64,000 nucleotides of DNA from an uncultured Muribaculaceae bacterium. GTDB taxonomy: Bacteria; Bacteroidota; Bacteroidia; Bacteroidales; Muribaculaceae. A program made the translations under genes and the position numbers. A model generated the notes under the pieces. It was not told the origin of the DNA. It was given only the letters and a program-made list of their open reading frames with translations, and ran no database searches. Position 1 is the stretch's first letter, and each line of letters opens with the position of its first letter. Location: NCBI GenBank assembly GCA_947628305.1, contig CANQZG010000016.1, positions 304-64,303 of the forward strand, read 5' to 3'. Of the stretch, positions 15,781 to 37,884 are shown piece by piece.

Positions 15781-15862
15781 TTTTTTTTGAAAAAATTTTC
15801 TTTTCGGATAGGACTTTTTCGCAGGATGCCAGTCATAGGTGTGAACAAAAGATATTCACATC

Positions 15863-16444: not shown

Positions 16445-16449
16445 AAATT

Positions 16450-20275: not shown

Positions 20276-20276
20276 G

Positions 20277-20681: not shown

Positions 20682-20683
20682 AG

Positions 20684-21255: not shown

Positions 21256-21266
21256 CAGAATAGCAA

Positions 21267-21776: not shown

Positions 21777-21940
21777 AATGAATAGTGACGATGTAAAACA
21801 ATTATAACCTTACACCGTAGTTTTTAAGTAACACCTATGGCAGAAAGAAGCCGAGTGCAAAGAATCTGCTTAATAATATGAAATCGCTATCCAATTCAGT
21901 CACGACACGGAGGGATGGCAAATGGAAATCATAAAAAAAC

Positions 21941-21980
21941 AGACAGACAACCTCGACAGTGATGTCGAGGTTGTCTGTCT
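21941..21980. terminator. Bidirectional terminator between cargo and mobilisation modules
   Basis: AGACAGACAACCTCGACA-gtga-TGTCGAGGTTGTCTGTCT (18-bp perfect stem), with A7 upstream and TT downstream, between convergent genes. Confidence 0.85.
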
Positions 21981-22011
21981 TTAGGGATTGTGAGCTGTTG
22001 CTCAGGGGATA

Positions 22012-23046: not shown

Positions 23047-23051
23047 GACTA

Positions 23052-24065: not shown

Positions 24066-24412
24066 GTTTTCATACGGTTTTTGAGTTTGAGAACAAAGGC
24101 GGCGATACGGTCAACAAGGTTTTCAGCCTTGTCCGCCGCGCCGTGATAGCCCTCGGTATTGGCTTGATGGGCTATCTGGTTGAGATTCGGGCCGAGCTTT
24201 TTCAGTTCGTAAAGGAGCATCTTTTCCTCGTCGGAGAGTACGCCGGTGACCTCGGCGTTCAACGCTCCCTCCCTCACATATTCAGCCCGGCTCAAACCGG
24301 CGCGGGATGCCTTGATGTCTATGATGTCGAACTGAGAATCGCTGAAACGTACCGTCACAGTGTTGCTCTTCTTAGCCTGTCCGAGAGGCGGTCTTCCGGT
24401 TGATTTCTTCAT
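24062..24412 (-). CDS. MobC-family ribbon-helix-helix relaxosome accessory protein
   Basis: 116 aa. VTVRFSDSQFDIIDIKASRAGLSRAEYVREGAL and LKKLGPNLNQIAHQAN. Overlaps the relaxase start by 4 nt. Confidence 0.75.
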   Translation of the reverse strand: MKKSTGRPPLGQAKKSNTVTVRFSDSQFDIIDIKASRAGLSRAEYVREGALNAEVTGVLSDEEKMLLYELKKLGPNLNQIAHQANTEGYHGAADKAENLVDRIAAFVLKLKNRMKT

Positions 24413-24629
24413 TGGAAAATCGGTGTGGTTGGTGTAATGATTGCACCGGATCGAGCGACCATCGGGAGGCAGGCAACAACCGCCCGGACGGGCTGTTTTG
24501 CCCCTTTTGAGGAACTCAAAAGGTATCTTGCCTTACCAATCTAAAAGACGCTATTGGATATCGGGCGAAGCCATCCCTTCGGGACTTGCCGCCTACCGAT
24601 TTAGCCACTAATCCGATGCCGTTTCTATC
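24413..24629. other. Candidate oriT region
   Basis: Non-coding 217 bp immediately upstream of the mob operon. It contains a perfect inverted repeat CCTTTTGAG-gaa-CTCAAAAGG (24503-24523). Confidence 0.4.
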
Positions 24630-25139
24630 TCAGAGTTTGCGCCAGACTTCGATGTCCGGGGAGTATGCCCGCAAGTGGTCGGCGAGGACAGCGTTGATGT
24701 AGCTGGCGACGGTGGTGCCACGATTGCCGAGGATGCGGGCGATGCGTTCAAGCTGCTCCCAGATGTCGTCCTCGATGTTGACCGGGTGACGGTTCACCAC
24801 CTTTGCCGGAGTTAGGAACGTTGCCTTGAAGTCGGCGAAGTCCGATTTGCGCTGCTGCTTGCCGATGCGCTGTTGCTTCGGTGGCTCGGTCGTTTCGATT
24901 ACTGATGTTGCCTCGGTTGCCGTCTGCTCGTCGCCAAACAGATTGTCGGCGTTGGCAGGTGTGGTAATGTCAACAGCGTTATCGCTGTTAACTGTGGAAG
25001 TGGGGTTGATTGAATTAGGTGAGTTATCGGGTTGCATAATAATTTGCGGGTTAGAGTTTGATACTTTGGATTTGGTTGCATTGGTCAACTCGGTTGACTT
25101 AGATGCGGTTGTTGATGATGCTTTTGTTGTTTTCATCAC
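24630..25139 (-). CDS. DUF3408-like protein (common in Bacteroidales integrative elements)
   Basis: 169 aa. Low-complexity N-terminus. C-terminus FLTPAKVVNRHPVNIEDDIWEQLERIARILGNRGTTVASYINAVLADHL. Confidence 0.6.
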   Translation of the reverse strand: MMKTTKASSTTASKSTELTNATKSKVSNSNPQIIMQPDNSPNSINPTSTVNSDNAVDITTPANADNLFGDEQTATEATSVIETTEPPKQQRIGKQQRKSDFADFKATFLTPAKVVNRHPVNIEDDIWEQLERIARILGNRGTTVASYINAVLADHLRAYSPDIEVWRKL

Positions 25140-26011
25140 TTGTTTTGTTTGATGGTTGAGCTTTGATTTGTGAGATACTCATTCAAGTCGTTGAACTCGG
25201 AGTAGAGTGTTGATTGGTCAATCACAATTGAGCCATATATGGCTGTTAATTCGGATAATGCGTTTTGTCCGGCATTGTCGTTGTCAAGATAGCAGTTGAT
25301 TGTTTTGTAATCTTTGAGAAAAGGCACAGCCTTGTTGACATTGACAACCGAGTTGAGTATGATTGCGTCGGCTCCGCTGATGATGCCGAGTGTGAGTGCC
25401 GAGAGATAATCTATAAATCCCTCGAACACGGCACACTCTGCTGACGGGCCATCTCTCGCCCACGGCAAATATGAGATGTCCTTGCGTCTACGGCAACCTT
25501 TGAAATATCGGTTGCGCAGTTCCCAGCCTCCGCTGACATTCTCAAATGCCACGGCAAAATATGGTTTACTGTTGACGCTGTAGTGAGCCTCCTTGCAGTT
25601 CGCCTTGGCAATGTGTACCGGGATACCACGCTCTTGGAGGTATGCGACAAGTGCGTGGTGTTCCAGTGGCACGACTTCAAACCGCTCCATACTCGGTGCA
25701 GAATGTCGCGGAGCAAAAGAGGAAGCGACTGTCGGCACCGATGGCACCGGGTAGCTGTCAGCGATGCAACGCATGAGATAGTGCAGGTCGGTTGACTGAT
25801 ACAACTCGAATGCCAGGTCGATGATGTTGCCGCCTTTGCCAATACCGAAGTCATACCAGCAGTTGAGCGCGGTATCGACCTTGAACGATGGTGTCTGTTC
25901 CTGTCGCAATGGCGACTTATACCAAAGCCTCGTTCCTTTTCTCGCCGCCGGCTCATGTCCGAGCAGGGACAAGAAGGAGGCTAAAGGGATTGATTTAATC
26001 TCTTTGATCAT
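25136..26011 (-). CDS. Toprim-domain, primase-like protein
   Basis: 291 aa. N-terminal zinc-finger-like region without the full Cys set (RLWYKSPLRQEQTPSFKVDTALNCWYDFGIGKGGNIIDL), then Toprim (VFEGFIDYLS..CYLDNDNAGQ). Confidence 0.7.
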   Translation of the reverse strand: MIKEIKSIPLASFLSLLGHEPAARKGTRLWYKSPLRQEQTPSFKVDTALNCWYDFGIGKGGNIIDLAFELYQSTDLHYLMRCIADSYPVPSVPTVASSFAPRHSAPSMERFEVVPLEHHALVAYLQERGIPVHIAKANCKEAHYSVNSKPYFAVAFENVSGGWELRNRYFKGCRRRKDISYLPWARDGPSAECAVFEGFIDYLSALTLGIISGADAIILNSVVNVNKAVPFLKDYKTINCYLDNDNAGQNALSELTAIYGSIVIDQSTLYSEFNDLNEYLTNQSSTIKQNK

Positions 26012-26097
26012 GGGTTCTAAAATGTTAGAGTGGGTTGGTCTTTGGTTTGGGTCCTATTATATATGCCCTTTTCTAAACCAGACCAGAATTGTGATTT

Positions 26098-27141
26098 TCA
26101 ATAGTAGAAATCCGGATTGTAGATGTACTCGCGATTCTCGTAGCGAATCATGCCTTTGTTGTCAAGAAAGGTCTTTAAGCCCTTGACCTTGTTGTTGGAA
26201 TACGAGTGTCCACAGGCGGCATATCCTGCCTTCAATGCCGCCTCGAAGTTGCGACAACCTTTTATCGGCCCGTTGGCGAATACCACACCCAACGCCTCGC
26301 GGTGCTGTTCCTCGGTCAGTTCCTTGTAGGGATAAGGGTCTTTGGTTTTCTTGCCCGGCTCGGTGAACACATATCCGCTGGCTATCTCCGGCAGTCCGTA
26401 GTCATTGACACGGAAAGCGAATGGATCGAACTCGGCGGCGCGTATCATGGCGGCGCAGACCTCAGATACGGTATCATCGGTTTTACTGCGGCTCACCTGA
26501 AGTACGGTTTCTGCTTTGTTGTTCAGCTCAGTACCAACATGACCACGGGCATTATCATCGCTCTTGTTGAGATGCAGGACGGTGTGGATATGTATCTGGA
26601 ACTTGTCCGTCCATTCCATCAGCTTGCCGATAAGATCAGTTGACTCCTTGGCGCAGTTGATGTCATACATCAGGTCGCGCACACCGTCTATTACTACCAA
26701 TCCTACGCCGGGAGTATTGATTATAGCCTGCTCGATGACTTCAAGGCGCAATGAGGGTGTAAGCTGGCGCAATGCCGCGAATTTCAGATGCTCAGGGTGG
26801 GTGTCTGTCGGCAGTTTCGCCAGTCGCAAGGCTCGTTCCATTACCTTCTGACAATGATACGGACTTTGCTCTGTATCGAAGTAGAGGATTGTGCGCTTGT
26901 CGTCGGGAAACTCGGCTGTGTAGCCCAATACCTTGCCATTGACAAGCGATGCTCCGACGATGGCAGCGACATTGAAGGTCTTTTTACTCTTTGCCTTGCC
27001 GGTCGATGCCGAGAAGTTGCCGAGAGTGCCGATGACACTGCCGTTGGCATACAGTACCTCCGGCGCAGTCTGAATCTCATCGGTGATTCGCAACTGCTTT
27101 TCCTCCCAGAGTTTGAGGATGTCTTGCTTCACTCCGTCCAT
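26098..27141 (-). CDS. AAA-family (RepA/DnaB-like, AAA_25-type) ATPase
   Basis: 347 aa. P-loop-like GNFSASTGKAKSKKT, Walker B LVVIDGVRDLMYD, and HIHTVLHLNKSDDNARGH. Confidence 0.65.
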   Translation of the reverse strand: MDGVKQDILKLWEEKQLRITDEIQTAPEVLYANGSVIGTLGNFSASTGKAKSKKTFNVAAIVGASLVNGKVLGYTAEFPDDKRTILYFDTEQSPYHCQKVMERALRLAKLPTDTHPEHLKFAALRQLTPSLRLEVIEQAIINTPGVGLVVIDGVRDLMYDINCAKESTDLIGKLMEWTDKFQIHIHTVLHLNKSDDNARGHVGTELNNKAETVLQVSRSKTDDTVSEVCAAMIRAAEFDPFAFRVNDYGLPEIASGYVFTEPGKKTKDPYPYKELTEEQHREALGVVFANGPIKGCRNFEAALKAGYAACGHSYSNNKVKGLKTFLDNKGMIRYENREYIYNPDFYY

Positions 27142-27467
27142 TCCTCACCCCCTTTCTTATGTTCTTGTATGAGATCGAGTGCTTTCTGGGCGTCAATGAC
27201 GATTTTTCTGCCAGATTGGGTTATGGCATCTTTGATTACGCCACTGTTCTTGATACGGTGTGCGGTAGCCTTACTGCACTGGAGAAGTTCGCATAGACCC
27301 TTGATTCCGTAAACGAGCCAACGCTTTGCAGTGGTGGCAACATTTTCGTCAGAGGTAACGCTTTCGGTAGCGGTCTTGGTCTTGACAAAATGAGAGTCAA
27401 GTAATTCTAAAAATTGTTCTCCGGTGTACTGCCAGAGAGGAAGTTTGAGTAACTGGTCTTTTGTCAT
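27129..27467 (-). CDS. HTH_17/excisionase-like DNA-binding protein
   Basis: 112 aa. GIKGLCELLQCSKATAHRIKNSGVI. First gene of the HTH-AAA-primase operon. Confidence 0.6.
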   Translation of the reverse strand: MTKDQLLKLPLWQYTGEQFLELLDSHFVKTKTATESVTSDENVATTAKRWLVYGIKGLCELLQCSKATAHRIKNSGVIKDAITQSGRKIVIDAQKALDLIQEHKKGGEEWTE

Positions 27468-27535
27468 ACGCAGTGTGGGTTTGAGTTATACTTCCGCCCT
27501 CTGAGAGAGCGTATCCGAGTATCTCCCGGACACTG

Positions 27536-27543
27536 CAAAATTA
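27536..27543 (-). promoter_or_regulatory. Candidate -7 box (TAATTTTG) for the HTH-AAA-primase operon
   Basis: CAAAATTA on the + strand, about 69 nt upstream of the ATG at 27467. Confidence 0.4.
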
Positions 27544-27595
27544 CAACCGGTAATGAGTGGTATGTATGTGGATTCCTATTCTCCACTTACTAAAA

Positions 27596-27628
27596 CTACC
27601 CGTCAGAGTATCAGGCTCTAACGGGTAG
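27596..27628 (-). terminator. Hairpin terminator after the 390-aa gene
   Basis: CTACCCGT..ACGGGTAG (8-bp stem), followed on the - strand by TTTT. Confidence 0.45.
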
Positions 27629-27704
27629 TATCATAAGGTTTCAAAAGTGGAAATTTGAGTGGTGAAAGTGGTGCGCGAGTGGTATCTTTAAGTAGCACGG
27701 ACTA

Positions 27705-28877
27705 TCAAGCCCTCTTTTTATGGTTTTTCATGACTTCATCGACATCATCGGCGAAAGCCATACTTGACCTGCTGGCGTCGCTTCCACGTGGATGAGAATA
27801 TTTGCTTTCGTAATAGGACGCATCAATGTTGAAGTGCGTAAGAATGTCCTCCCTCCATGCTACCTTGTGCTTTTCTGGCACTATGTCGTAGAGCTTCGAG
27901 ATGAGATAGCACACCTTAATTTTTTGCTTGGGCTTTATCTTAAGAGGTTCATGCTTGCCATGCAGATTCAACGATGAATGAAACTGCGTTTCTGTCGGAT
28001 TGTCGAACACATCTGAACACACCTCATATAGTTCAGAGATGAGTATCATCGGAAACAGCTCTTCCTCCCATTGACGGCATGATTTCGTATTGGTCTGATT
28101 CTGTTTTACAGGTTGTTCAGGCGTGGGATAACTGCCATTATGAACCTGCATCTTTTGTATAAAGGTTTCCCTGCATTTCGGATGTAACTGAATTTCACAA
28201 GGCGGAAAGTATCTTTCCACCGTGATAAAAATTTTGCGACAGACATTTCGCAAGTCATGGTACACATCGAATGAAGGTTTCAACAGAAATTCATCATATT
28301 CAACGCTTTCCTGCAATTTCTTAAGAAATTCCCGTTTCTTTTCAAGCCATCCTTCACGGGTTTCGGCCATATGGAATAACTCGATTTCCTGTTTGTACTT
28401 ATCTATCGTCCAATCATCAGGCACCGGGATTTTGCGGCAAGCCTTTAGCGCGTACTCATAATGAGCGGCAATCATATAGAACATCTCCACTTCTTTAAGG
28501 AAGTGGTTGCTTTCGTAGCCGTCTATCATGTCTGCCTTGGATTTATTTTTACGTTCTTTGTCCAATTTATAGAATACATTTTGGAATGTATCTATTCTTG
28601 TCGCAATCTCAACACAGTAATTTCTGGTCTGGTTAGCTTGCACCTTTCCGATTTCTCCGGAAGCATGGGATTCGATGATAGCGTTTTCGATGTCGATAGA
28701 GCAAAGTTTACTGGTGGCCTCGGCAATTCGCTTGTACAGAATTGTATCCTGTTTGGCTACCAGCGGAACTTTCGTGAGTTGCCTCAGGTCGTCCAATATT
28801 GGCACAACATCTCGTAATGTCGTAGGGTTTGGCATTTGCGGGGTGGTGTTTAATGGGTTGATGAATGTGAGTACCAA
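27705..28877 (-). CDS. Hypothetical protein, 390 aa, no domain recognised
   Basis: Long ORF on the same strand as its neighbours and predicted to be largely helical. Lys-rich C-terminus. The start may be at M1 or M15. Confidence 0.55.
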   Translation of the reverse strand: MVLTFINPLNTTPQMPNPTTLRDVVPILDDLRQLTKVPLVAKQDTILYKRIAEATSKLCSIDIENAIIESHASGEIGKVQANQTRNYCVEIATRIDTFQNVFYKLDKERKNKSKADMIDGYESNHFLKEVEMFYMIAAHYEYALKACRKIPVPDDWTIDKYKQEIELFHMAETREGWLEKKREFLKKLQESVEYDEFLLKPSFDVYHDLRNVCRKIFITVERYFPPCEIQLHPKCRETFIQKMQVHNGSYPTPEQPVKQNQTNTKSCRQWEEELFPMILISELYEVCSDVFDNPTETQFHSSLNLHGKHEPLKIKPKQKIKVCYLISKLYDIVPEKHKVAWREDILTHFNIDASYYESKYSHPRGSDASRSSMAFADDVDEVMKNHKKRA

Positions 28878-28968
28878 TAAATCTTAACAATACCTATTGG
28901 AATGTTATGAAATTTTAGCACTCAGTATCTCAAACAACAAGCAACCCAAAAGTGTTCGCCCGCAAGAT

Positions 28969-30495
28969 TCAATGTTTAAGGATATCCCATCTGCCCGCTC
29001 TGGTACTGCCTTGGCGCAAGATTACGCCTTCCTTTTGCAAAACGTCTAAGTCGCGACGTATGGTAATTTTTGCAACATCTTCCTTAGCAGCTAACTCAGA
29101 CAATCTAATTGTGGGATTCTCAGATATGTATCCAATGATGCGCAACTGTCTTCCAGATAATTTTATGTGCTCATTTATGTGCTCATTTATGTGCTCATTC
29201 GGTGAACCATAAGGGTTCTCGGCATTGACTATCTTCAGTTCGAGTTTAACCTGCATCAGTTCAGGTTGCTCAATGAGCTGAGGTTTCAGCCAGTGCCTTT
29301 CATGCCAGGCATTGAGTATGAGAGGGAAGCCTGAACCAAGATTTTCGCCATAGCCTATCATACGAAGCATGTGCTGCATCCGCTGGTTACGCGCTTTGGA
29401 CTCTCCTCCGGCATAAATCTGCTCAAGCGGAAGTTTCAGCAGTCCGGGATTAGTGAGCACAAATCTGTCATCATACTTTTCAACCCTAAGGAGTCCGCTG
29501 CCTATCATCATGTCGGCATGGATAATCATGTTGGTAAAAGCCTCACGAACTGCTTTCTTCTGCGGAGTATCATCCTCTCGGATAATACCTGTCATCTTGA
29601 ATGGTCTGGGTAAATCCCGCGTAAGACGGGGAACTACCATACGCAGAAAGTTGAATATGTTGTTCTCCCATGTGCCATCGTATGTCAGGCGGTCGCTATA
29701 CCTTTGGTCTCCAACAAGATTAGACTTGTCGATGTAATCCATTCGCAGGTTGTCAAATCGCTCCCGCACCGGCAAGCCTTTGCCAAACATCAGCAAACCT
29801 GCCATAGTAAGCCCTTCCTTTCCGGAGGTACGGTCAATGGTATAAGCTCCGAGTTGTGTTAGAAATTCTTTGTGGTCCAATCCGTTCCATACGTGTTCGA
29901 GATTTGCCACACGGAACATGTTGCGATATGCCTCAAGTGTCGGAATATCTATGTCGTCCATCGTATAATGTTCGAGAAACATACGGTCATTACCATCATC
30001 ATAGGCATCTCGCAACATCATTCTTATAATGGCTTCGGGGCAATGATAATCTCCCTCATGCCGGCGTCGGTATGTGCCACGCATAATGTTGTTGTTGATA
30101 TATACCGGGCGCTCTTCATAAGTGGCACGAGGCACATGAATAACGACAACATCTTTACCATCGTATGAAAGGGTATTGATGTCTTCGTCTCTAAGCAGGC
30201 TGGTGCTTACCTTTTCTCGGCTATTGAGTGTGTTCCATATATCCGTGCGTATTTTTGCGGCATCTTCAACGCCGATGACATTGAAGCGTTTGGATGTGTC
30301 CTTTTCCTTCAAATCCTCGTCAACACCAAGAAGAATTGTGCCGCCATCAGTATTCGCAAAAGCAGAATAAGTTTCCCATAATGAATGTGGCACATCCTTT
30401 CTTGCTCTCTTACATTCAAGGGTAACCCGTTCTCCATTAGCCAAAAGTTGGTCAATGTATTCTTTATTGTTTATTTCTGCGTTGTTCGTTGCCAT
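28969..30495 (-). CDS. AlbA_2 (Schlafen-like), HATPase_c_4 and winged-HTH protein (COG2865-type)
   Basis: 508 aa. AlbA_2 (VTLECKRARKDVPHSLWETYSAFANTDGGTILLGVDE), HATPase_c_4 (REAFTNMIIHADMMIGSGLLRVEKYDDRFVLTNPGLL), and C-terminal wHTH (LSGRQLRIIGYISENPTIRLSELAAKEDVAKITIRRDLDVLQKEGVI). Confidence 0.75.
   Translation of the reverse strand: MATNNAEINNKEYIDQLLANGERVTLECKRARKDVPHSLWETYSAFANTDGGTILLGVDEDLKEKDTSKRFNVIGVEDAAKIRTDIWNTLNSREKVSTSLLRDEDINTLSYDGKDVVVIHVPRATYEERPVYINNNIMRGTYRRRHEGDYHCPEAIIRMMLRDAYDDGNDRMFLEHYTMDDIDIPTLEAYRNMFRVANLEHVWNGLDHKEFLTQLGAYTIDRTSGKEGLTMAGLLMFGKGLPVRERFDNLRMDYIDKSNLVGDQRYSDRLTYDGTWENNIFNFLRMVVPRLTRDLPRPFKMTGIIREDDTPQKKAVREAFTNMIIHADMMIGSGLLRVEKYDDRFVLTNPGLLKLPLEQIYAGGESKARNQRMQHMLRMIGYGENLGSGFPLILNAWHERHWLKPQLIEQPELMQVKLELKIVNAENPYGSPNEHINEHINEHIKLSGRQLRIIGYISENPTIRLSELAAKEDVAKITIRRDLDVLQKEGVILRQGSTRAGRWDILKH
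29165..29200. repeat. In-frame 12-bp tandem repeat x3 (ATGTGCTCATTT), encoding (NEHI)3
   Basis: ATGTGCTCATTT ATGTGCTCATTT ATGTGCTCATTC. It lies in the linker between the HATPase_c_4 and wHTH domains. Confidence 0.9.
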
Positions 30496-30547
30496 AATAC
30501 AAAATTAATCATTTCTAATGGACTTTTCATGTCTGGGGAGCAAATAA

Positions 30548-31900
30548 TCACTGTATCGGAGGCACTATAAATATTTTCTCGTTAAATGCCTGCATCATCG
30601 CCGGAGTCACATTAGAAATGTAACCGGCGAGAAGCGCCGATACTTCCGATGTGGCGTGTCCTACAGCATAGTCTATGTACGCTGTCATGACTCCATGATG
30701 CGCCAATGCCGAAATAAAAGAGTTGCGGGCATACTGTGGCGTAACGGGCTGGATTCCGAGAGATTCGCATACGTCCTTAATATTTTTTGATATGCGGCGA
30801 TTGAAGTCGTGGACACGTATAGACTTCTGTTCATCTGTAACCGCATTGAGGAATATGTCAGGGAAAACAGGTTCACCGGGATTATATGGAGAGGCATACG
30901 CATCGAGCAACTGCCGTAGCTGAGGGATAATCGGCACGGATGTTTCATCAAGCTGCTTGCCGACAGGTTTGTTTGCCCTGTCAATCTTGGAGCGTATGAA
31001 AACAAATTGCGGAAATTTCTGCGAGACTGCCGCCTTCTCGGTCCAGATAAGTTTAGCCATATCTATGGTGTTCATACCGTTAAGACAATAAAGGAGTAGC
31101 CAGCGTCCTACCGCACGCGCATATTTTGACTGTTTATCAGGATCTGCAAGCCAATATTCCCACAACTTCAATACTTCTTCCACAGTCAAGGCGTTCAAAC
31201 GGCGACGGTTGCCGGCATGGATAAGACCTTTGAAATTAGGTGCCATAGTGGTGTGTCCGTCTTTATATGCCTGATTGAACACAGCACGAGTGGCGCGAAG
31301 AATTACCATTCGCGTGTCCAAAGAAAGCGGCAGATCTGTGCCGTTTCGCGCTTTCTGTTCATCAAGCCATTTGGCGAAGCGTGTAATTATGGCGGTATCG
31401 ACAGCACCGAGAGAAATAGGTTTATCCTTGCGGAACAGTTTGAACCAATCAAGCGCGGAAGAATACATCGCGCGGGTCTTTACTTTTTCTTTCGATGCTC
31501 CAAGAGCTGCCCAATAAGAAAAAGTATCATCTGCTCTCATCGTTTTTTCTGTCACTTTCCCTTCCGACTTGTCGAGATAACTTTTCAAGTCGGCTACAGA
31601 GAAGCGATTGAGCAAGATAAGCTCATCAGTTTTGGCGCATACACGATCAAACATCTTGCGAAGTTCTTTTCGGGTTTCGATGGCGGTATTAGATTTTGAG
31701 AACAGAGCCTCGTATTCTTTCATTGATGACACCTTATATCCGGTCGAGAAATATCTTCTCGCCCGCTGATGGGTGACGCAGACTGTCAACGGCACAGATT
31801 TGCCTTTATCGAATTTATATCTATTATCAGGAGCGAGAATGATATACACCGTCGCTCCTGCGAACCGTCGTGATTCATCGCTAAAAAGTGCCTTGTTCAT
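30548..31900 (-). CDS. Tyrosine-type site-specific integrase
   Basis: 450 aa. Arm-binding-like N-terminus. Catalytic C-terminus with NGMNTIDMAKL, RNSFISALAHHG and AYIDYAVGH (R..H-x-x-R..Y context). Confidence 0.85.
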   Translation of the reverse strand: MNKALFSDESRRFAGATVYIILAPDNRYKFDKGKSVPLTVCVTHQRARRYFSTGYKVSSMKEYEALFSKSNTAIETRKELRKMFDRVCAKTDELILLNRFSVADLKSYLDKSEGKVTEKTMRADDTFSYWAALGASKEKVKTRAMYSSALDWFKLFRKDKPISLGAVDTAIITRFAKWLDEQKARNGTDLPLSLDTRMVILRATRAVFNQAYKDGHTTMAPNFKGLIHAGNRRRLNALTVEEVLKLWEYWLADPDKQSKYARAVGRWLLLYCLNGMNTIDMAKLIWTEKAAVSQKFPQFVFIRSKIDRANKPVGKQLDETSVPIIPQLRQLLDAYASPYNPGEPVFPDIFLNAVTDEQKSIRVHDFNRRISKNIKDVCESLGIQPVTPQYARNSFISALAHHGVMTAYIDYAVGHATSEVSALLAGYISNVTPAMMQAFNEKIFIVPPIQ

Positions 31901-31906
31901 ATAGCT

Positions 31907-32009
31907 GTGTTCAAAGTTGTGTTCAAGTTTTTATCAGACCTGCCAGACCCTATAAAACAATCAGGGAGCGTGTTCAGCAAATGGGATTTGAACACATTTT
32001 GAACACAAC
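31907..32009. repeat. Arm-type recombinase-site cluster, right end
   Basis: TGTGTTCAAAGTTGTGTTCAAG (31907-31926), GCGTGTTCAGC (31968-31978) and TTGAACACATTTTGAACACAAC (31988-32009). Same 8-mer as at the left end. Confidence 0.7.
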
Positions 32010-32033
32010 CCACGAGTTTCAAGAGGTCTCATA

Positions 32034-32041
32034 CAAAATTA
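32034..32041 (-). promoter_or_regulatory. Candidate -7 box (TAATTTTG) for the integrase
   Basis: CAAAATTA on the + strand, about 134 nt upstream of the int ATG. Confidence 0.3.
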
Positions 32042-32136
32042 CAAACTTCTTTTGATGTCTGCAAATATCTGATAATCAAATTACAACTTATTAACGAAGT
32101 TTCATGCGGTTTCGTTCAAAATCATGCCGTCCACCT

Positions 32137-32180
32137 ACTCATAATCAGGGAGTCCTAGGTTCAAGCCCTAGTGGGACCAC
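32137..32180 (+). repeat. attR direct repeat (displaced 3' part of the tRNA; not a functional tRNA)
   Basis: Identical to 14900-14943. It lacks the 5' acceptor strand and D arm. A tRNA-terminator-like hairpin follows: AGTAGTTAGC-acgt-AGCTGACTACT-T6. Confidence 0.95.
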
Positions 32181-32279
32181 TCAAAATCAAGTAGTTAGCA
32201 CGTAGCTGACTACTTTTTTATTGCCATTCTCCGCAGAAATATACAGAATCGCGCCCTCTGTTTTCTCCAATGTTTTCAT

Positions 32280-33173
32280 TCAGTCGTTTTGTTCATAATA
32301 GTACGAGTAGTCAATACCTTTCATGAACATTTCGCGGTCATTGATTTTTGTTGTCAAAGCTGTCTTGATTAGATTTTTAATATGTGAACTTTCGGCAACA
32401 CTTTCACGCATTGCCGAAAGGTATTCATTTTTGTCTATCTTGCTCCAATCGACACATCGTTTCAATGAACGCTTGAGCATTATATCGAGCCAAATACGAG
32501 TGCTTCTGCCATTACCTTCCATGAATGGATGGGCGACATTCATTTCGACATATTTGTCAATAATCTCATCGAAAGTCGTTTCCGGCATTCTTTCAATAGT
32601 AAGTAGTGTTTCGGGGAAGTGCATACAGTTGGCAAAGGTAAAGCCTCCCTTAGATATGTTCTTTGTGCGAATCTGCCCGGCAAAATCATACAGACCACCG
32701 AATATATAAGCATGTATCTGTTGCAGACATTTTATGCTACCCGGCTCCAGTCGTTGTAACAGACCGCTCTCATACAACTGATATGCTTTCTTGCGGCTTT
32801 GCCCGTCTAAAGTGGTGTCACTATATGTGAACCAATCGAGAAATTCATTTGCCCGGTTGTTGGGATAATGTTTGGCCAATAGTGAAACGCCTTCGCTGTT
32901 AAGCACATCCGCGACACGTAGTTTTCCATCAGGAGCCTCAAATTTGAACTTGTGAGTGCCACTCACGACTTCAACGCCTTCTTTCAGCAATTTCCGTTTA
33001 AGCCATCGCCAATAGTTTCCGGCCTTGACATAATCAGGTTCATTGTTTATAGCCCTGACGATATCTGTTGCCGAAAACCACCAGCAGTTGTTCTCGTCAT
33101 CCCAAACGGCACGCACCTCCCGGTCGTTAAAGAACCGAATGGATTTCTTATGTGATTTCGCTGATTCTTCCAT
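32280..33173 (-). CDS. Fic-domain protein with a Bro-N-like N-terminal domain
   Basis: 297 aa. Canonical Fic motif HPFMEGNGRSTR. The N-terminus (IRFFNDREVRAVWDDENNCWWFSATDIVRAIN) resembles Bro-N/antirepressor domains. Confidence 0.8.
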   Translation of the reverse strand: MEESAKSHKKSIRFFNDREVRAVWDDENNCWWFSATDIVRAINNEPDYVKAGNYWRWLKRKLLKEGVEVVSGTHKFKFEAPDGKLRVADVLNSEGVSLLAKHYPNNRANEFLDWFTYSDTTLDGQSRKKAYQLYESGLLQRLEPGSIKCLQQIHAYIFGGLYDFAGQIRTKNISKGGFTFANCMHFPETLLTIERMPETTFDEIIDKYVEMNVAHPFMEGNGRSTRIWLDIMLKRSLKRCVDWSKIDKNEYLSAMRESVAESSHIKNLIKTALTTKINDREMFMKGIDYSYYYEQND

Positions 33174-33215
33174 AAGTGAAATATATAATTTGCCAACAGA
33201 TAAGTTGATGGCTAA

Positions 33216-34013
33216 TTATTGGAACCATGAGTTTGGCATTAAGGGGACTCTCTTAATTTTAGGCAAATTTCGAGAAATAATTTGCCCTACGATTTGCTTT
33301 TGAACCAAAGACATGTCTTTGCCATAGTAGGCACACACAAAACAATCTTTTGGCAAGACTATGCGCTTGTATTCATCTTCCATCGTTTGGGGATAGATGA
33401 AACGTATCTCTTGTTCTGGTTTCCATGGAATAGATTTCTTTAGCGCAAAAAATTTATATGCAGAAAAAATCCTAACTGACGATGGTGCGCTAAGTGCCAG
33501 CCATGGTATAGCATCCTCAACAGAATCCTCGTATCGTACCATAATGCAAGCTGTTTTGAGGCCTTGCGCTATTAATGCTTTTGTGACTTTATTCTGATTC
33601 AAGCCAATACAGATTCCGTTTACTTGACCATTATCATCACAGGCATATCGGTTCCAAAGCGTGGTATTCGTAGGCGATGTGCCAAGACTACAAACACCAA
33701 ATGATGACAACACTTTTTCCTGTTCTCGCAAATGGTTATTTGCAATTTCTTGTGCGCTTTCTATTCCTTCTAAGATTTTAAGTGGGGCCGAGGTGTTAAA
33801 CTTAGTTATATTTAAATCCTCTGTATCATTTAACCTATCCCCTCGTGTAAATTGAAGATTATTGTATTGCAACATCTTACATCCACTTTCAAAAGTGAGA
33901 TATTTATATATAATCGGATAGTTGCTTGCTTGTTTAACGAGCAAGGTCATGAAATTTTTTATCTCATATTCGGAGATGGGACTTGAATCGGCAAATCTTG
34001 TTTCTTTTGACAT
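33216..34013 (-). CDS. DUF2971-like protein
   Basis: 265 aa. N-terminal IIYKYLTFESGCKMLQYNNLQFTRGDRLNDTEDL matches the DUF2971 signature (YKY..L..L.F...NDP.E). Confidence 0.6.
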   Translation of the reverse strand: MSKETRFADSSPISEYEIKNFMTLLVKQASNYPIIYKYLTFESGCKMLQYNNLQFTRGDRLNDTEDLNITKFNTSAPLKILEGIESAQEIANNHLREQEKVLSSFGVCSLGTSPTNTTLWNRYACDDNGQVNGICIGLNQNKVTKALIAQGLKTACIMVRYEDSVEDAIPWLALSAPSSVRIFSAYKFFALKKSIPWKPEQEIRFIYPQTMEDEYKRIVLPKDCFVCAYYGKDMSLVQKQIVGQIISRNLPKIKRVPLMPNSWFQ

Positions 34014-34014
34014 A

Positions 34015-34248
34015 TCAATCTAATTTGCCGCCATTGATTAATGAGCGAGTGTCAACTTTAGGGATAGAAGCAATCTTTACTAACATTTCAAGACTGGGCT
34101 GAGATGTGTTGGAACACCATCGGGAAATGGTCGCTTCGTTTTTCCCTAACTGTTCGGCGAGCCATTTGCCGGTGCGGTTCTGCTCAACCAAAACGACTTT
34201 CAGCCTATTTATGCGTTCAATTTCTATTTCTATACTATTTGTGAGCAT
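34015..34248 (-). CDS. XRE-family HTH transcriptional regulator (77 aa)
   Basis: MLTNSIEIEIERINRLKVVLVEQNRTGKWLAEQLGKNEATISRWCSNTSQPSLEMLVKIA. ATG at 34248 is preferred; the ORF-track extension to 34359 runs through the promoter and the att remnant. Confidence 0.7.
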   Translation of the reverse strand: MLTNSIEIEIERINRLKVVLVEQNRTGKWLAEQLGKNEATISRWCSNTSQPSLEMLVKIASIPKVDTRSLINGGKLD

Positions 34249-34272
34249 GAAATAATTCGTTGATGTTATTTG

Positions 34273-34280
34273 CAAATTTA
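34273..34280 (-). promoter_or_regulatory. Candidate -7 box (TAAATTTG) for the HTH-DUF2971-Fic operon
   Basis: CAAATTTA on the + strand, 25 nt upstream of the ATG at 34248. Confidence 0.4.
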
Positions 34281-34333
34281 GTGAGCGTTTTTGAGACAGC
34301 AAAATTTTGTAGAACCAAAATATGGATTTTCCA

Positions 34334-34344
34334 AGTGGGACCAC
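34334..34344 (+). repeat. Degenerate third copy of the tRNA 3' end (AGTGGGACCAC): possible ancestral att/tRNA terminus
   Basis: 11-nt exact match to the last 11 nt of the att repeats, in the same orientation. A hairpin plus T-run follows about 22 nt downstream, as after the other two copies. Upstream similarity is weak. Confidence 0.4.
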
Positions 34345-34366
34345 AACAAGCGAAAGCAAAACACGG

Positions 34367-34401
34367 AAGAATCCTGAAAATCAACGATTTTCAGGATTCT
34401 T
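34367..34401. terminator. Strong bidirectional hairpin terminator
   Basis: AAGAATCCTGAAAATC-aac-GATTTTCAGGATTCTT (16-bp perfect stem), with T-runs on both strands. Confidence 0.8.
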
Positions 34402-34418
34402 TTATGTCTTTATGATAT

Positions 34419-34913
34419 TCAATATCTCACACTGATTTTAGTGTTGCATACTTCAACATTGCCGACATATTTAGGAGTGGCATTATCATAATTCCCCTCT
34501 GTGTCACCATGATATATTTTCAAAATGAAGTCATTTTGAGGTATATTTTCAATGGTAAAAGATGCGTCTATCTCGCAACGACAGTCTGCACCATCGTAGG
34601 ACGGGTATTCAATTATTGTCATAATCCCCTCGTTATATGTTATTTTGACGTTCACCTGTCCGTAATCACAAGGATATTCAAGCGATGTGAATTTGCATTT
34701 GGCAATCTGACCTTCAAATATCATCTCAAAAGTGCCGTTGTTGTTTTCACTGCGATTTTCAGTGTTATCAATGTCCCGGTGCGACAGGCAATCGGTATTT
34801 ACAAGGTTGGAAATGTAGGGGTATTGAACGGCTATGTCTTCCATGCTTGAGCAAGAGTTCAATGCGATAAAAATGAAACTTATAGCCATGAGTTGAAAGA
34901 TTGAATGTTTCAT
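34419..34913 (-). CDS. Hypothetical Cys-rich lipoprotein
   Basis: 164 aa. Lipobox FIALNSCSS and several Cys pairs. Last gene of the sigma-barrel/CotH operon. Confidence 0.55.
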   Translation of the reverse strand: MKHSIFQLMAISFIFIALNSCSSMEDIAVQYPYISNLVNTDCLSHRDIDNTENRSENNNGTFEMIFEGQIAKCKFTSLEYPCDYGQVNVKITYNEGIMTIIEYPSYDGADCRCEIDASFTIENIPQNDFILKIYHGDTEGNYDNATPKYVGNVEVCNTKISVRY

Positions 34914-34925
34914 ATTGCCTGATTA

Positions 34926-36182
34926 TTACTTTTTGTTTATGGGCAAGTGGTTGTTGAACCATTCGATATTGCGTCTTAAAGCGTTCTTTATTCTGTCCGC
35001 TCTTACTCGTGCTGTCTGCGTCGGGTCTTCATTCCACCTTTCGCAATCATTTTCCCAAGCCTCGGCAAGGGGCAAGACGGTTGCATCAATGTAGTCGTAT
35101 ATCTCGGAAAGTTGATGTGGGTAAACATCGCCCCAAATTGATTTTACCGATTGGCAGAAACTATCATATTGGATTATCTCTCCAATCCAATGGGGGGTAA
35201 AGCCATAATGGACTTTCATCCTGAATGTGTAGTCAGTCTTTTCGCGGTTGTAGCACACCAAATCCCAAATCGGTCCGGCAATCCATTTGGCATTGTCGCC
35301 CATATCCTTGTGAAGATAGAAACTGCCGTGAAAACCGTCCGGGTTGTCCATAACTTCCTGCAATATAAAAAAACGGGCCATGTTTTCAACATCAATATAT
35401 TCTTCCCATTCGGTCGAAGCCTTGTCTTTGGAATATATTGCTGCATTTATTGACGTGAATTCGTTAGTGAGCCATTGCAACTGAGGATTGGACAGATTTT
35501 CCGGTGAATGGTAACGGAGAGTCAGGTTCCATCTACCACATTCGGGAATCGTAATCTGGCACACATCGTGGTAGTTGTCAACTTCCACAAGCCACCCTCC
35601 CTTTATAAATTCGGGATTGGTTTCCTTGTCCGGCTGTTCATAGATATTCACTCGGTTTTCATCTATGCGGATTGTTTCAGTAAGGAAATACAATCCTATA
35701 TAATCTCCGTTCAATACGACTTCGACCGGGCGAAAACTCGGAGTCCACGCCATATCCATCAGCTTGCCCAACTGTAATCCTGCAACAGTGTTTTCGGTTG
35801 GTTTGAGCAATGCCCAATGCTTGTTTTTAGGCATACCCATCAAGGCTGTCTTTTTACCGAGTTTGATTTTGTATGGCTTCTTAACGCCTTTCCATGATGA
35901 ATGGCCTCTCCCTCTGATTTGCATAGGCAACGGGGCGGTTTCTGTGCCGAGTGGTTCAATGTCCTCTGCACGCATAGGGTCAAGCCAATATGAGGCGTTG
36001 AGATATTCCTCTTTGGAAATAATCGGTTGGCGGTTTTCAGTTTCGATATACAGAACAGGCAATGTGCCGGATACCGATACGGTGGATTGAGATGGCGGTG
36101 CGGTCGCTTCTATGTCATCCTTGCAGGAGGCAAACATTAGAGCAAGCAATAAGTAGCTGATTTTGATGATTATGCGATGCAT
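34926..36182 (-). CDS. CotH-family (atypical kinase fold) secreted lipoprotein
   Basis: 418 aa. Lipobox MFASCKDD. MQIRGRGHSSWKGVKKPYKIKLGKKTALMGMPKNKHWALL and DNPDGFHGSFYLHKD are typical of CotH. Confidence 0.7.
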   Translation of the reverse strand: MHRIIIKISYLLLALMFASCKDDIEATAPPSQSTVSVSGTLPVLYIETENRQPIISKEEYLNASYWLDPMRAEDIEPLGTETAPLPMQIRGRGHSSWKGVKKPYKIKLGKKTALMGMPKNKHWALLKPTENTVAGLQLGKLMDMAWTPSFRPVEVVLNGDYIGLYFLTETIRIDENRVNIYEQPDKETNPEFIKGGWLVEVDNYHDVCQITIPECGRWNLTLRYHSPENLSNPQLQWLTNEFTSINAAIYSKDKASTEWEEYIDVENMARFFILQEVMDNPDGFHGSFYLHKDMGDNAKWIAGPIWDLVCYNREKTDYTFRMKVHYGFTPHWIGEIIQYDSFCQSVKSIWGDVYPHQLSEIYDYIDATVLPLAEAWENDCERWNEDPTQTARVRADRIKNALRRNIEWFNNHLPINKK

Positions 36183-36270
36183 AGTTATACATTATTGGGT
36201 TTTGTTAATTTTACCGTATAGATGAAATAATACCCCAAAGACTGCATAAAGATAACAGAATTTCGTCAAA

Positions 36271-37812
36271 TTACCATGTCAGCCTTAACCCTATAGGTAT
36301 GGAAAACTCAACGGGTTTGTCCTGTCGGATTGTATTGATATCCGAACCGGGATTGAAATAATACTTGAACGATGGTTCGGCGTATATGCTGAACGATGGC
36401 GTGAAATGGTACTGAATTCCCAAACCTCCTTCTACCGACCATTGCACCGACGCATGGATATTGATTGTGGTGTTGGTGGGATTGCCCCATTGCGGAGAAT
36501 GCTCCATTATCGACTGACTGCCGTTGACGGGAATATCCAGCGCGCCGCCACCTTGTCCGTACAATGAGAATTCATTATAGGTGAATATTAGATAGTTGAG
36601 TTTAAACGGAATACCGATATAATGTATTCGCTGAATGGTTTCTTTGTCTATCACTTTGCTTTGAGAAAGGATGTCTGACCGTAGGAATGTATAACGGATG
36701 CCCGTTTCCACGCTCCAACGAGAGGTAAGTGACCTATTGATAGATAGGCCAATCACCAACGGCATATAATGACGTGTCTTCTCCGTGACTTCGATTTCGC
36801 CGGCGGGACCTTCCACATCGGGCAGGGTAGGATTAGGTATTCTATAATGATTTATTTCGTTTTGTTCAAGGCTGCCTGCGTATGCCAGCGACAATGACCA
36901 ATCAGGATTTTCGGATTGTTGGGTAGAGAGGTAATTTTCCTGTGCAATAAGTTCTTCCCGGTTAATGATATTCGGAATTACCCTTATGGAGTCATTGGTA
37001 ATACTGTCATTCTTAACAGCAGGGATACTGTCGATTGTGATTGGTCTCTCGGCTATATTCCGTTGCGTGTTATGATGTCGTATTGTCTTGTAAATCATTT
37101 TAGAATTTGGCACGATGCTGTCAGCAGGAGAATTGCCGTTATTTATAGAATCGGTAACAGCCGGTGTCTCTTTTTCGGCATTTTTGCTTATTATCGGGAT
37201 TGACGGAGTATCTTCACGATGTTTGAACAGGCAATGCCAGATAAGCAGTATAATTCCAAGGATAGACAGAATACCCATCTCCACACGATATTGCGTAATC
37301 AAACGTCGCAGCATAGCTTTTGCGCGGGTTAGTTGTGAAGATGACGAATGAGGAGCGATGCCAAGCAACGCGGCGATTTCTTTATGCGAAAGTCCATCAA
37401 GAACAGCAAGCCGAAAGACTTTGCCGTAACCATCAGGCAATTTGTCGATTATTTTGTCCAGTTCTTCCCAAGTCAGTTCACGTGCGTTCTCAGCGGAGGC
37501 AACGGAATTATCCGCGGTTGCAGTATCCGACATGGGTACAGAAATGTGGCTTGCTTCATCTTTAAGATATTGGAGTGACAGGTTTTTCATTATGGATGTT
37601 AGCCAGGCCTCTATTCTCACTCCATTTTTGAGAGAGCCTATTGATGTGAAGGCAATCAGAAAACCGTCATGCAGTATATCTTGTTCTGTATCAACATTAT
37701 GAATATAATACGCCACAACCTCACGCATGGGCGCAAGATAAGTCTGATAGAGAATCCCGAAGGCTTCTCTATCTCCTGATTGGCATTGTTTGACAAGCTG
37801 TACTTTGTCCAT
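36271..37812 (-). CDS. ECF sigma-70 domain fused through one TM helix to an outer-membrane-type beta-barrel domain
   Basis: 513 aa from ATG 37812 (MDKVQLVKQCQSGDREAF). Sigma region 2 (DILHDGFLIAF), region 4 (LPDGYGKVFRLAVLDGLSHKEIAALLGIAPHSSSSQLTRAKAMLRR), TM (MGILSILGIILLIWHCLF), a Ser/Asn/Ile-rich linker, and a C-terminal barrel-like domain (WSLSLAYAGS..GGLGIQYHFTPSFSIYAEPSFKYYF..IPIGLRLTW). Confidence 0.7.
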   Translation of the reverse strand: MDKVQLVKQCQSGDREAFGILYQTYLAPMREVVAYYIHNVDTEQDILHDGFLIAFTSIGSLKNGVRIEAWLTSIMKNLSLQYLKDEASHISVPMSDTATADNSVASAENARELTWEELDKIIDKLPDGYGKVFRLAVLDGLSHKEIAALLGIAPHSSSSQLTRAKAMLRRLITQYRVEMGILSILGIILLIWHCLFKHREDTPSIPIISKNAEKETPAVTDSINNGNSPADSIVPNSKMIYKTIRHHNTQRNIAERPITIDSIPAVKNDSITNDSIRVIPNIINREELIAQENYLSTQQSENPDWSLSLAYAGSLEQNEINHYRIPNPTLPDVEGPAGEIEVTEKTRHYMPLVIGLSINRSLTSRWSVETGIRYTFLRSDILSQSKVIDKETIQRIHYIGIPFKLNYLIFTYNEFSLYGQGGGALDIPVNGSQSIMEHSPQWGNPTNTTINIHASVQWSVEGGLGIQYHFTPSFSIYAEPSFKYYFNPGSDINTIRQDKPVEFSIPIGLRLTW

Positions 37813-37884
37813 TGAATATATAGATGGACAGCACCCCAAAAGACTGCATCAAGTAGGGATAAAAGTTTTTGATATTTTCTGTTT

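Follow-up and report, generated by a model that had tools for sequence, protein, structure and literature searches.

A decayed tRNA-Met island remnant with candidate anti-phage genes in an uncultured Muribaculaceae bacterium

Genomic islands that integrate at transfer RNA (tRNA) genes can accrete in tandem, and integrase-less derivatives of such islands are known, e.g., the cis-mobilisable elements (CIMEs) that lie next to integrative and conjugative elements (ICEs) in streptococci. P2/P4-type phages and their satellites carry variable defence hotspots, which include the system PARIS, and the anticodon nuclease PrrC sits inside a type I restriction-modification (R-M) locus, EcoprrI. Here we compare these systems with a small islet at positions 32181-34405 of a 64,000-nucleotide (nt) stretch of DNA from an uncultured Muribaculaceae bacterium (GenBank assembly GCA_947628305.1, contig CANQZG010000016.1). 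We call this whole stretch the window. The islet is the decayed remnant of a small mobile tRNA-Met island, a known kind of thing, and it carries two candidate anti-phage genes and one regulator, all on the minus strand.

As in tandem tRNA islands, successive elements at one tRNA gene are split by repeats of the tRNA 3' end, and the older element lacks a recombination module. Unlike typical cases, the two elements differ in integrase and in core (44 nt versus 14 nt), and the old one is a 2-kb defence operon. The islet also belongs to a family that resembles the P2/P4 hotspots in that the mobile backbone is conserved and its defence cassette (DUF2971 or fused PARIS AriAB) can be exchanged, but this backbone is a small Bacteroidales tRNA-Met island and not a phage or satellite.

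The tRNA-Met(CAT) gene of the window lies at 14869-14944, and its last 44 nt occur again, exactly, at 32137-32180. This second copy is the right attachment (att) site, attR, of a 17.2-kb element, and it bounds the islet on the left. On the right, the islet is bounded by a third, partial tRNA-Met 3' end and a hairpin terminator. The sequence downstream of a tRNA-Met end comes in two types here: type B after attR and type A after the third copy. The features are listed below, with proteins measured in amino acids (aa); HTH stands for helix-turn-helix, and L208 and L115 are related loci described afterwards.

32137-32180, plus strand: attR, a 44-nt copy of the 3' part of tRNA-Met; exact direct repeat of 14900-14943 and left limit of the islet
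32181-32235, plus strand: type-B tRNA-Met downstream flank with a hairpin at 32189-32215 (terminator scan; homology to the L115 chromosomal flank)
32236-32276: 41-nt filler joining the type-B flank to the conserved island block
32280-33173, minus strand: Bro-N plus predicted class III Fic AMP-transferase, 297 aa (Pfam, NCBIfam, PDB and PADLOC matches)
33216-34013, minus strand: divergent DUF2971 protein, 265 aa (PADLOC PDC-S31; distant profile relatives)
34015-34248, minus strand: XRE-type HTH protein, 77 aa, putative operon leader regulator (HTH_3, E=1e-8)
34249-34310, minus strand: putative operon promoter and 5' leader, with the Bacteroidetes -7 box TAAATTTG at 34273-34280
34311-34330: arm stub adjoining the att core (the arm is ~190 nt in relatives)
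34331-34344, plus strand: 14-nt tRNA-Met 3'-end remnant CCAAGTGGGACCAC, the distal att core
34345-34403, plus strand: 21-nt spacer and type-A hairpin terminator, matching the sequence after tRNA-Met in L208

Much of this agrees with a preliminary description of the same DNA. Its three co-oriented minus-strand genes (XRE HTH, DUF2971-like and Bro-N plus Fic) are borne out by open reading frames (ORFs) and domain matches alike, and the promoter box that it assigned to the operon is present on the minus strand at 34273-34280, 24 nt ahead of the HTH start codon (ATG). The genes are tightly spaced, with a gap of 1 nt between HTH and DUF2971 and one of 42 nt between DUF2971 and Fic.

Relatives of the island were located by looking up loci that encode close homologues of the islet proteins. 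L208 (NCBI assembly GCA_964018255.1) was found through an 88%-identical HTH in L208-L211, where the HTH-DUF2971-Fic triad is kept. It contains, in order, tRNA-Gln, an intact tRNA-Met, a 21-nt spacer with hairpin, a truncated AlbA_2-like gene, a 345-aa gene (p345), Fic, DUF2971 and HTH, followed by an arm of ~190 nt, the remnant CCTAGTGGGACCAC, the same spacer and hairpin, and the host gene yjbQ. The L208 island is thus flanked by direct repeats of ~75 nt, each consisting of tRNA end, spacer and terminator. It has no integrase, and its guanine-cytosine (GC) content is 39%, against 58-60% in the host flanks. Window 32277-34310 aligns to L208 5939-7972 with 93.1% nucleotide identity over 2034 nt, and the encoded proteins are 98.7% (Fic), 93.1% (DUF2971) and 88.2% (HTH) identical. 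The promoter and leader (34249-34310) lie inside this 93%-identical block.

The second set of relatives, L115-L119, comes from another Bacteroidales organism and encodes a 94%-identical Fic. Its operon consists of an HTH (58% aa identity to that of the window), a 631-aa ATPase/DUF4435 protein and Fic, and the 13-mer TCACTAAATTTGC of the promoter/leader region is identical in L115. The middle gene, which takes the place of DUF2971, is a fused PARIS AriAB (E=2e-110, PADLOC). After Fic come p345, small ORFs, an HTH_17 excisionase-type gene and a 409-aa integrase. CCCAAGTGGGACCAC with a terminator is found ~255 nt before the HTH on its upstream side, pointing away from the operon as in the window, and the L115 arm (7487-7690) is 76% identical to that of L208. 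The tRNA-proximal end of this island cannot be read, because all contigs that carry it stop at a palindrome, GACTGAACTTTTCAGCTGAAAAGTTCAGTC (perfect over 30 nt; L115 15350-15380), where L115-L119 end ~125 nt past the integrase.

Together, these loci define a Bacteroidales tRNA-Met island family with an exchangeable cassette (DUF2971 or PARIS, two types seen so far) before a fixed Bro-N-Fic, and this family is new. The islet block has been seen in three unrelated genomic contexts across species. The preliminary description had read it as an older, integrase-less insertion tied to the same tRNA, and this reading gains strong support from the same block beside an intact tRNA-Met in L208 and from the integrase-bearing version in L115. 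We consider it very probable that the islet is the remnant of an older island at this tRNA.

The third tRNA-Met end is central to this conclusion. It had been noticed that the last 11 nt of the tRNA/att repeat, AGTGGGACCAC, recur at 34334-34344 in the same orientation; this match is real and extends to 13 of 14 nt as CCAAGTGGGACCAC (34331-34344). The strong hairpin reported to follow it is likewise there, at 34365-34403, and has a terminator score on both strands in the terminator scan. The alternative is that the 11-mer matches by chance, the genes being ordinary chromosomal ones that lie downstream of a tRNA. Dinucleotide shuffles leave some room for this, as 4 of 100 gave three or more hits with at most one mismatch (the count includes the two true att copies), which makes shuffle statistics weak evidence for the origin of this copy. 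That origin is settled by homology instead. Window 34330-34395 matches the remnant tRNA-Met junction of L208 at 82% over 66 nt, and with 82% and 77% identity to the two L208 copies, the third copy with its spacer and hairpin shows 66-71 nt of homology around the 11-mer. The 28 nt at 34318-34345 match the L115 junction at 25 positions, some of them on the island side of the core. The 21-nt spacer is identical to the L208 remnant at 19 of 21 positions, and the stem pairing of the hairpin is kept between window and L208 through compensatory changes. A chance match would explain neither these alignments nor the recurrence of the block in unrelated contexts nor a GC content that departs strongly from its surroundings; already refuted by the junction homology to L208, it has a negligible probability. 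The earlier claim that the 11-mer is no accident therefore stands on the 66-nt and 25/28-nt homologies and not on the shuffles. To judge from these alignments, 14-mer, spacer and hairpin form a genuine tRNA-Met 3'-end junction of the island family.

The third copy reads CCAAG where the others read CCTAG. This "A" is an alternative T-stem allele of tRNA-Met, also present in the tRNA-Met genes of L091 (a strain of the same species), L135, L141 and L143. After the core, the type-A spacer AACAAGCGAAAGCAAAACACG leads into the hairpin and then into a lipoprotein gene. We rejected the idea that the hairpin is solely the terminator of that gene, because it is homologous to the L208 tRNA-Met terminator; relatives of the lipoprotein gene carry a different hairpin. 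The type-A terminator is bidirectional and also ends the neighbouring lipoprotein gene, so it probably now serves both that gene and the islet side. The hairpin after attR (32189-32215) has a terminator score on the plus strand only; it probably also ends the Fic operon from the opposite side.

Composition sets the islet apart as well. A windowed GC and k-mer profile, proposed earlier as a check, shows it to be distinct: its GC content is 39.8% (37.6% in DUF2971, 42.8% in Fic) against 49-53% in core DNA, placing it among the 12 lowest of 618 2.2-kb segments (lowest 2%), and its tetranucleotide distance is the largest in the window. The description of an AT-rich islet thus holds relative to core DNA, but the figure of ~35% GC was too low, and the low-GC zone does not stop at the islet. 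It continues through the lipoprotein gene (38%), a CotH gene (45%) and a sigma/outer membrane protein (OMP) fusion (44%), with DNA of ~51-53% GC beginning only near 37.9 kb.

How did the islet come to look as it does? In the full family layout, the att core and an arm of ~190 nt would be followed by the cassette (XRE HTH plus one defence gene), Bro-N-Fic and p345; full copies would add an excisionase and a tyrosine integrase. The islet would be a deletion derivative of such defence islands, whose integration site in gut Bacteroidales appears to be the last 14 nt of tRNA-Met. It would have kept Fic and the cassette (HTH and DUF2971), the core with a stub of the arm and, beyond the core, the tRNA-type spacer and terminator. 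Homology to L208 ends at 32277, 3 nt past the Fic stop codon, and p345 and everything beyond it are gone from the window. The 41-nt filler at 32236-32276, for which a match was looked for and none found, is, on our reading, a deletion or recombination scar where relatives have p345, xis and int. At the other end, window 34311-34329 is the counterpart of L208 5750-5938, i.e., ~19 of ~190 nt of the arm are left and ~170 nt are deleted. The stretch 32181-34405 encodes no integrase, and one of the L115 type could not be detected anywhere in the window. Set beside L208 and L115, the islet is the most reduced copy of the island. A different element, the 17.2-kb one with its 44-nt core, would have entered the tRNA later, and it now separates the tRNA from the islet.

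One alternative is that the islet is still alive, i.e., that it is an integrase-less, CIME-like satellite that an L115-type integrase could move in trans. The L208 copy also lacks an integrase, yet has kept its flanking repeats of ~75 nt, and the L208 and window copies are 93% identical in hosts that differ by ~10% in GC and whose CMD-cupin genes are only 72% identical. Set against this are the ~170 nt missing from the arm next to the core, the lack of a detectable L115-type integrase in the window, and the lack of an islet-skipping junction among the joints listed for four metagenomes. We consider a living satellite distinctly improbable.

The flanks raise a more serious question. In L208 both flanks are type A, whereas the window has type B on the left and type A on the right. 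The type-B flank, which starts AGTAGTTAGC after attR, resembles the flank carried by the 17.2-kb element family and matches the L115 chromosomal flank outside the island (78% over ~70 nt). Because the two flanks differ in type, the junction may have been imported with the islet: the block from Fic through DUF2971, HTH, arm stub and core to the type-A flank could have come whole from a donor and been joined downstream of a native type-B flank by illegitimate or homologous recombination. In that case, the third tRNA end would have come from the donor and would be no displaced local one. Several points suit such an import. Window 32181-32235 matches the chromosomal flank of L115, whereas 34345-34403 matches the host tRNA-Met flank of L208; a native origin of type B is suggested by the att flank of the 17-kb element family, which mimics it; and the sigma/OMP-CotH-lipoprotein trio beside the islet is low in GC and is element cargo elsewhere, so the whole of 32.2-37.9 kb may be a patchwork. 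However, the islet lies exactly between two same-orientation tRNA-end copies by the tRNA, as tandem site-specific insertions predict, and mixed flanks could also come from flank exchange in earlier excision/integration cycles, which explains them equally well. We regard wholesale import as doubtful, though credible.

Reading the islet as a remnant of an older insertion at this tRNA must accommodate some contrary evidence. Simple integration in place followed by deletion needs an extra assumption to yield mixed flank types. No islet-free contig of this species turned up, as exact-protein look-ups for the lipoprotein, CotH, S1-P1 nuclease and Fic returned only islet-bearing ones, and neither an excision junction nor one that skips the islet is among the joints listed for the four metagenomes. 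An alignment of the tRNA locus across related genomes, as had been suggested, therefore gives a partial answer: the block sits beside tRNA-Met in L208, but no empty state was seen in same-species contigs. Likewise, the proposal that the tRNA terminus was displaced twice is upheld as far as the older remnant goes, whereas a double displacement in this genome is plausible but not proven, given the differing flank types.

Further data speak to how the locus varies within the species. In a rabbit-gut sequencing run (X11), the islet is covered at a depth of 12-18 without mismatches and the cargo of the 17.2-kb element at a depth of 0-3, so the islet is independent of that element. The same-species strain L091 (98% nucleotide identity) has a different element at the tRNA, as does the same-species assembly GCA_964018515.1, for which only the tRNA side was seen. 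Metagenome contigs break at attR (32137-32180), the organism is absent from raw-read runs X21 and X22, and scans of viral contigs for Fic, DUF2971 and the att pattern TTTYCCAAGTGGGACCAC gave no matches.

Of the two candidate defence proteins, Fic is the better characterised by its relatives. The closest described protein, NmFic of Neisseria meningitidis (NMB0255), is a class III Fic protein, a class whose inhibition motif is SxxxE (PMC3667792). Its inhibitory glutamate keeps ATP from binding productively, its target site is hidden in tetramers, and activity on Tyr109 of GyrB is released once Tyr183 in the helix has been auto-AMPylated (PMC12894286). The 297-aa Fic of the window has the FIC motif HPFMEGNGRSTR at residues 215-226 (consensus HxFx(D/E)GNGRxxR), and its C-terminus, S290-Y-Y-Y-E294, aligns column for column with the SYYYE of NmFic, whose tyrosines NmFic auto-AMPylates. 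It matches the Pfam Fic family (47 bits), the NCBIfam NmFic equivalog NF046029 (268.5 bits against a cutoff of 230; residues 122-295) and NmFic itself in the PDB (E=4e-64; residues 121-294; ~60% identity). Among 20 Fic homologues the FIC motif does not vary, and the S/E pair and the tyrosines vary little or not at all. Two differences stand out: NmFic is a single-domain protein of ~190 aa, whereas the window Fic adds an N-terminal Bro-N domain of 115 residues (27.3 bits, just over the Pfam cutoff of 25.6), and the residue after the inhibitory glutamate is Q instead of the G/N of the textbook pattern. The window Fic is also embedded in defence loci, unlike NmFic. By these criteria it would be a class III (NmFic-like) enzyme with its own SxxxE inhibitory helix and an added Bro-N domain.

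The preliminary description had correctly recognised the intact motif and the Bro-N-like N-terminus. It had also stated that Fic has no inhibitory helix and that a partner protein may regulate it, and this is wrong, given the alignment of S290-YYY-E294 with NmFic. With a C-terminal SxxxE helix of its own, Fic can do without a partner for its inhibition. A class I FicTA arrangement, in which a small antitoxin supplies the helix in trans, was rejected on the same ground; moreover, the upstream neighbour is a 265-aa DUF2971 protein, and the HTH family also heads unrelated operons.

Fic homologues at 80-94% identity number in the thousands in Bacteroidales, e.g., in Duncaniella muris. Over residues 8-297, the window protein matches the PADLOC model PDLC04841 of the candidate family PDC-S04 (E=3.6e-168; model positions 3-292 of 292), and its N-terminus also matches the N-terminus of the candidate PDC-S13. 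In phage records, by contrast with this fused protein, the Fic domain and a Bro-N-like part occur only separately and at <60% identity. All contexts of the homologues are defence loci, and Fic always lies directly downstream of another gene. The 94% homologue follows fused PARIS AriAB in L115. An 87% homologue (L120-L127) lies between hsdS genes of a type I R-M locus that is phase-variable, with Abi_C and a RelA/SpoT protein alongside, and others, preceded by RhuM (PDC-S05) and a 482-aa protein, close Gabija or R-M islands (L202-L207).

Some details of these loci deserve separate mention. The gene order in L120-L127 is hsdM, recombinase, several hsdS, Fic, hsdS, Abi_C, hsdR and RelA/SpoT, and in L124 two copies of Fic alternate with hsdS genes. 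In L202-L207, which come from Duncaniella muris and relatives, a conserved hairpin and GGGGTGCCCAGAACAGG stand right after Fic, and three different integrase-bearing elements have inserted right after Fic, which makes this a hotspot other than tRNA-Met. We also considered whether Fic and its flanks move as a cassette and rejected this, because the DNA of L115 and of the type I R-M copies ceases to be homologous within a few bases of the ORF ends.

The DUF2971 protein belongs to a less clear-cut family. It matches two PADLOC models of the candidate family PDC-S31 (PDLC04994, E=3.8e-19; PDLC04990, E=1.9e-12). Membership of the DUF2971 superfamily is supported transitively, through sequence comparison with intermediates: 8 of 23 close homologues match Pfam DUF2971 at E<=0.01, and a profile search gave 1989 cluster representatives at E<=1e-3, of which 10 were sampled and all 10 score above the Pfam cutoff (24.6-51.4 bits). 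Its AlphaFold2 (AF2) model is a confident one, with a predicted local distance difference test (pLDDT) score of 89. Residues E200 and E202 are invariant. Homologues occur between TIR and Schlafen-like genes after an R-M system, and next to two Fic genes (in L197) and HipBA. The closest described system is Aristaios from Lactococcus, a DUF2971 protein experimentally shown to be an abortive-infection (Abi) system, with a predicted ADP-ribosyltransferase (ART) fold (PMC11381338). The likeness, drawn via the superfamily and not by direct sequence comparison, lies in the superfamily itself, a predicted fold that may be ART-like and the nature of a single-gene Abi candidate; Aristaios is plasmid-borne, and the window protein differs in belonging to a divergent Bacteroidales subfamily under the Pfam cutoff. 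We take the protein to be a candidate single-gene abortive-infection effector whose predicted fold may be DarT-like, i.e., ADP-ribosyltransferase-like.

The HTH family has thousands of Bacteroidales members at >=80% identity, and the same family leads other defence operons. For example, in L212-L221 an 82%-identical HTH heads an Mrr-DUF6361-591-aa-helicase operon, divergent from a second HTH with a type I R-M system. One small regulator family thus seems to lead many Bacteroidales defence operons. Judged by its family, the HTH of the islet looks like a generic leader regulator of defence operons and not a dedicated antitoxin.

From these parts we can propose how the operon might work. The three genes would be transcribed from the TAAATTTG promoter under control of the HTH, and the DUF2971 protein and Fic would act as two independent latent toxins of the abortive-infection type. 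The former may be an ART-like effector of the Aristaios/PDC-S31 kind. Fic would be self-inhibited by its C-terminal SxxxE helix and, by analogy with NmFic, also restrained by oligomerisation and switched on by auto-AMPylation of the helix tyrosines. Once released, it might arrest the cell by AMPylating gyrase (GyrB) or topoisomerase IV, again by analogy with NmFic, and the Bro-N domain would probably be an infection sensor or tether. A defence role for the islet genes, which follows from family membership, is moderately probable; the specific Fic mechanism (AMPylation of gyrase or topoisomerase IV on release) is a tentative suggestion that may well prove wrong. Taken as a whole, a remnant of a tRNA-Met defence island whose genes have such toxin functions is the best explanation that we have, and we consider it likely.

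Several results weigh against this functional account. In the only published test found of a PDC-S04 gene, made in E. coli NILS69, there was no phenotype (bioRxiv 10.1101/2024.12.20.629700). The AF2 model of whole Fic was poor (pLDDT 62, with a shallow alignment), so contacts between Bro-N and Fic are unreadable from it. The DUF2971 protein scores 17.9 bits against Pfam DUF2971 (PF11185), under the 22-bit cutoff, and the only PDB matches of its model below E=1e-3 are to the DNA ADP-ribosyltransferase DarT, with a best E-value of 3e-4 and low template-modelling (TM) scores of 0.36-0.46. Evidence from RNA is too scant to show expression, consisting of a single 171-nt exact contig in Fic from rat-gut RNA-Seq. 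There are also a few exact islet fragments in a sequencing run of unknown type, and other RNA coverage consists of 35-mers conserved with homologues. One such 35-mer, in window 33070-33105, has high depth in mouse-gut RNA libraries, and 33075-33099, in the 5' part of Fic, is a contig breakpoint in all four metagenome assemblies; assembly graphs are tangled at 33070-33105 because this segment is word-for-word identical in Fic homologues of other species.

The operon could instead be an obligate three-component toxin/immunity system in which the HTH, the DUF2971 protein or both restrain Fic. The gaps of 1 nt and 42 nt are tight, the triad is kept in L208-L211, and a DUF2971 homologue lies beside two Fic genes in L197. 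But Fic has its own inhibitory helix, and the 94%-identical Fic of L115 follows PARIS, not DUF2971, just as other homologues follow hsdS, or RhuM and the 482-aa protein. DUF2971 homologues, for their part, occur without the HTH or this Fic, the HTH family heads unrelated operons, and PADLOC models both Fic and DUF2971 as single-gene candidates. A three-component system is therefore very improbable. A search for the HTH-DUF2971-Fic triad in defence islands, proposed earlier, found it not to be fixed: relatives carry a different HTH and middle gene, and elsewhere each of the three is found without the others. The earlier suggestion of a toxin/immunity or abortive-infection module survives in part, as both effectors belong to candidate defence or Abi families (PDC-S04 and PDC-S31), but its claims about the helix and a fixed trio do not.

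The contexts of Fic suggest a more general idea. Because Fic directly follows DUF2971, fused PARIS, the hsdS of a phase-variable type I R-M system, or RhuM and the 482-aa protein, Bro-N-Fic might be a general "last-gene" guard toxin of Bacteroidales defence loci, one that is triggered, through Bro-N as the sensor, by a phage that disables or engages the system next to it, much as PrrC guards EcoprrI. The 87% homologue of L120-L127 does lie between hsdS genes, the position that PrrC occupies in EcoprrI, but PrrC and Fic differ in effector chemistry and the islet has no R-M system. We offer both the general role and the guard mechanism as speculation with a slim chance of being right. If true, the tRNA-Met island would be a vehicle with a swappable cassette of HTH and defence gene before a fixed Fic-p345 backbone.

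Much of what we describe is well known in kind: stacked tRNA elements, integrase-less derivatives, a solved relative of Fic, and both effector families, which PADLOC holds as computational candidates whose hidden Markov models (HMMs) the two window proteins match. Apart from the island family, what is new is that a very common Bacteroidales Fic is a predicted class III enzyme with an added Bro-N domain; both novelties are modest. PADLOC lists PDC-S04 and PDC-S31 as single genes, whereas the window has both in one operon behind a shared HTH. If our reading is right, three layers of mobile DNA are stacked at one tRNA-Met, which would aid the annotation of such loci in gut Bacteroidales, and PDC-S04 and PDC-S31 would be tied to a defined family of islands that move horizontally and whose cassette is exchangeable. 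It would also let DUF2971 and PARIS be compared naturally within one backbone and in Bacteroidales, a group with few tested defence systems. For Fic, the corrected, self-inhibited class would point to E294G or deletion of the last helix as the unmasking mutation. Current ideas on islands or Fic proteins are unchanged.

Some observations concern the neighbouring DNA. The 17.2-kb element spans 14945-32136 between att repeats at 14900-14943 and 32137-32180, with a 450-aa integrase at its right end (30548-31900, minus strand). Its relaxase and NikA/MobC genes indicate that it is probably an integrative, mobilisable element, and its cargo includes an extracytoplasmic function (ECF) sigma factor, a FecR-STN-TonB receptor and DUF4249. 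Close to either end of the element there are GTGTTCA/TGAACAC repeats (14998-15023, 15060-15095 and 31894-31915), and a 12-nt unit occurs three times at 29162-29199; both are possible candidates for integrase arm sites. A contig from rat-gut run X1 joins 32181 back to 14950, which would fit a circular or tandem form of the element family.

To the right of the islet, the sigma/OMP-CotH-lipoprotein trio (34419-37839) has a GC content of 43%. In L133, L135, L141, L143 and L144, the trio directly follows tRNA-Met and the att flank of the 17-kb family, i.e., it is element cargo there, and the L144 locus also has a 94%-identical integrase. In the window the trio is inverted relative to the tRNA, and the stop codon of the lipoprotein gene abuts the type-A terminator.

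Upstream of the tRNA lies a CMD-cupin gene (13116-13958) whose relatives, 57-84% identical, occur in Bacteroidales, Firmicutes, Collinsella and others. In a scan of genome contigs for synteny, no relative (best 84%) shares a neighbouring gene with the window, giving no information on the empty site. The gene looks like a horizontally spread accessory gene, and a 72%-identical copy lies near the L208 island. Finally, window 8031-8092 matches the Rfam SAM-II (long-loop) riboswitch (57.7 bits against a gathering threshold of 44), just upstream of the S-adenosylmethionine synthetase gene at 8202-9530.

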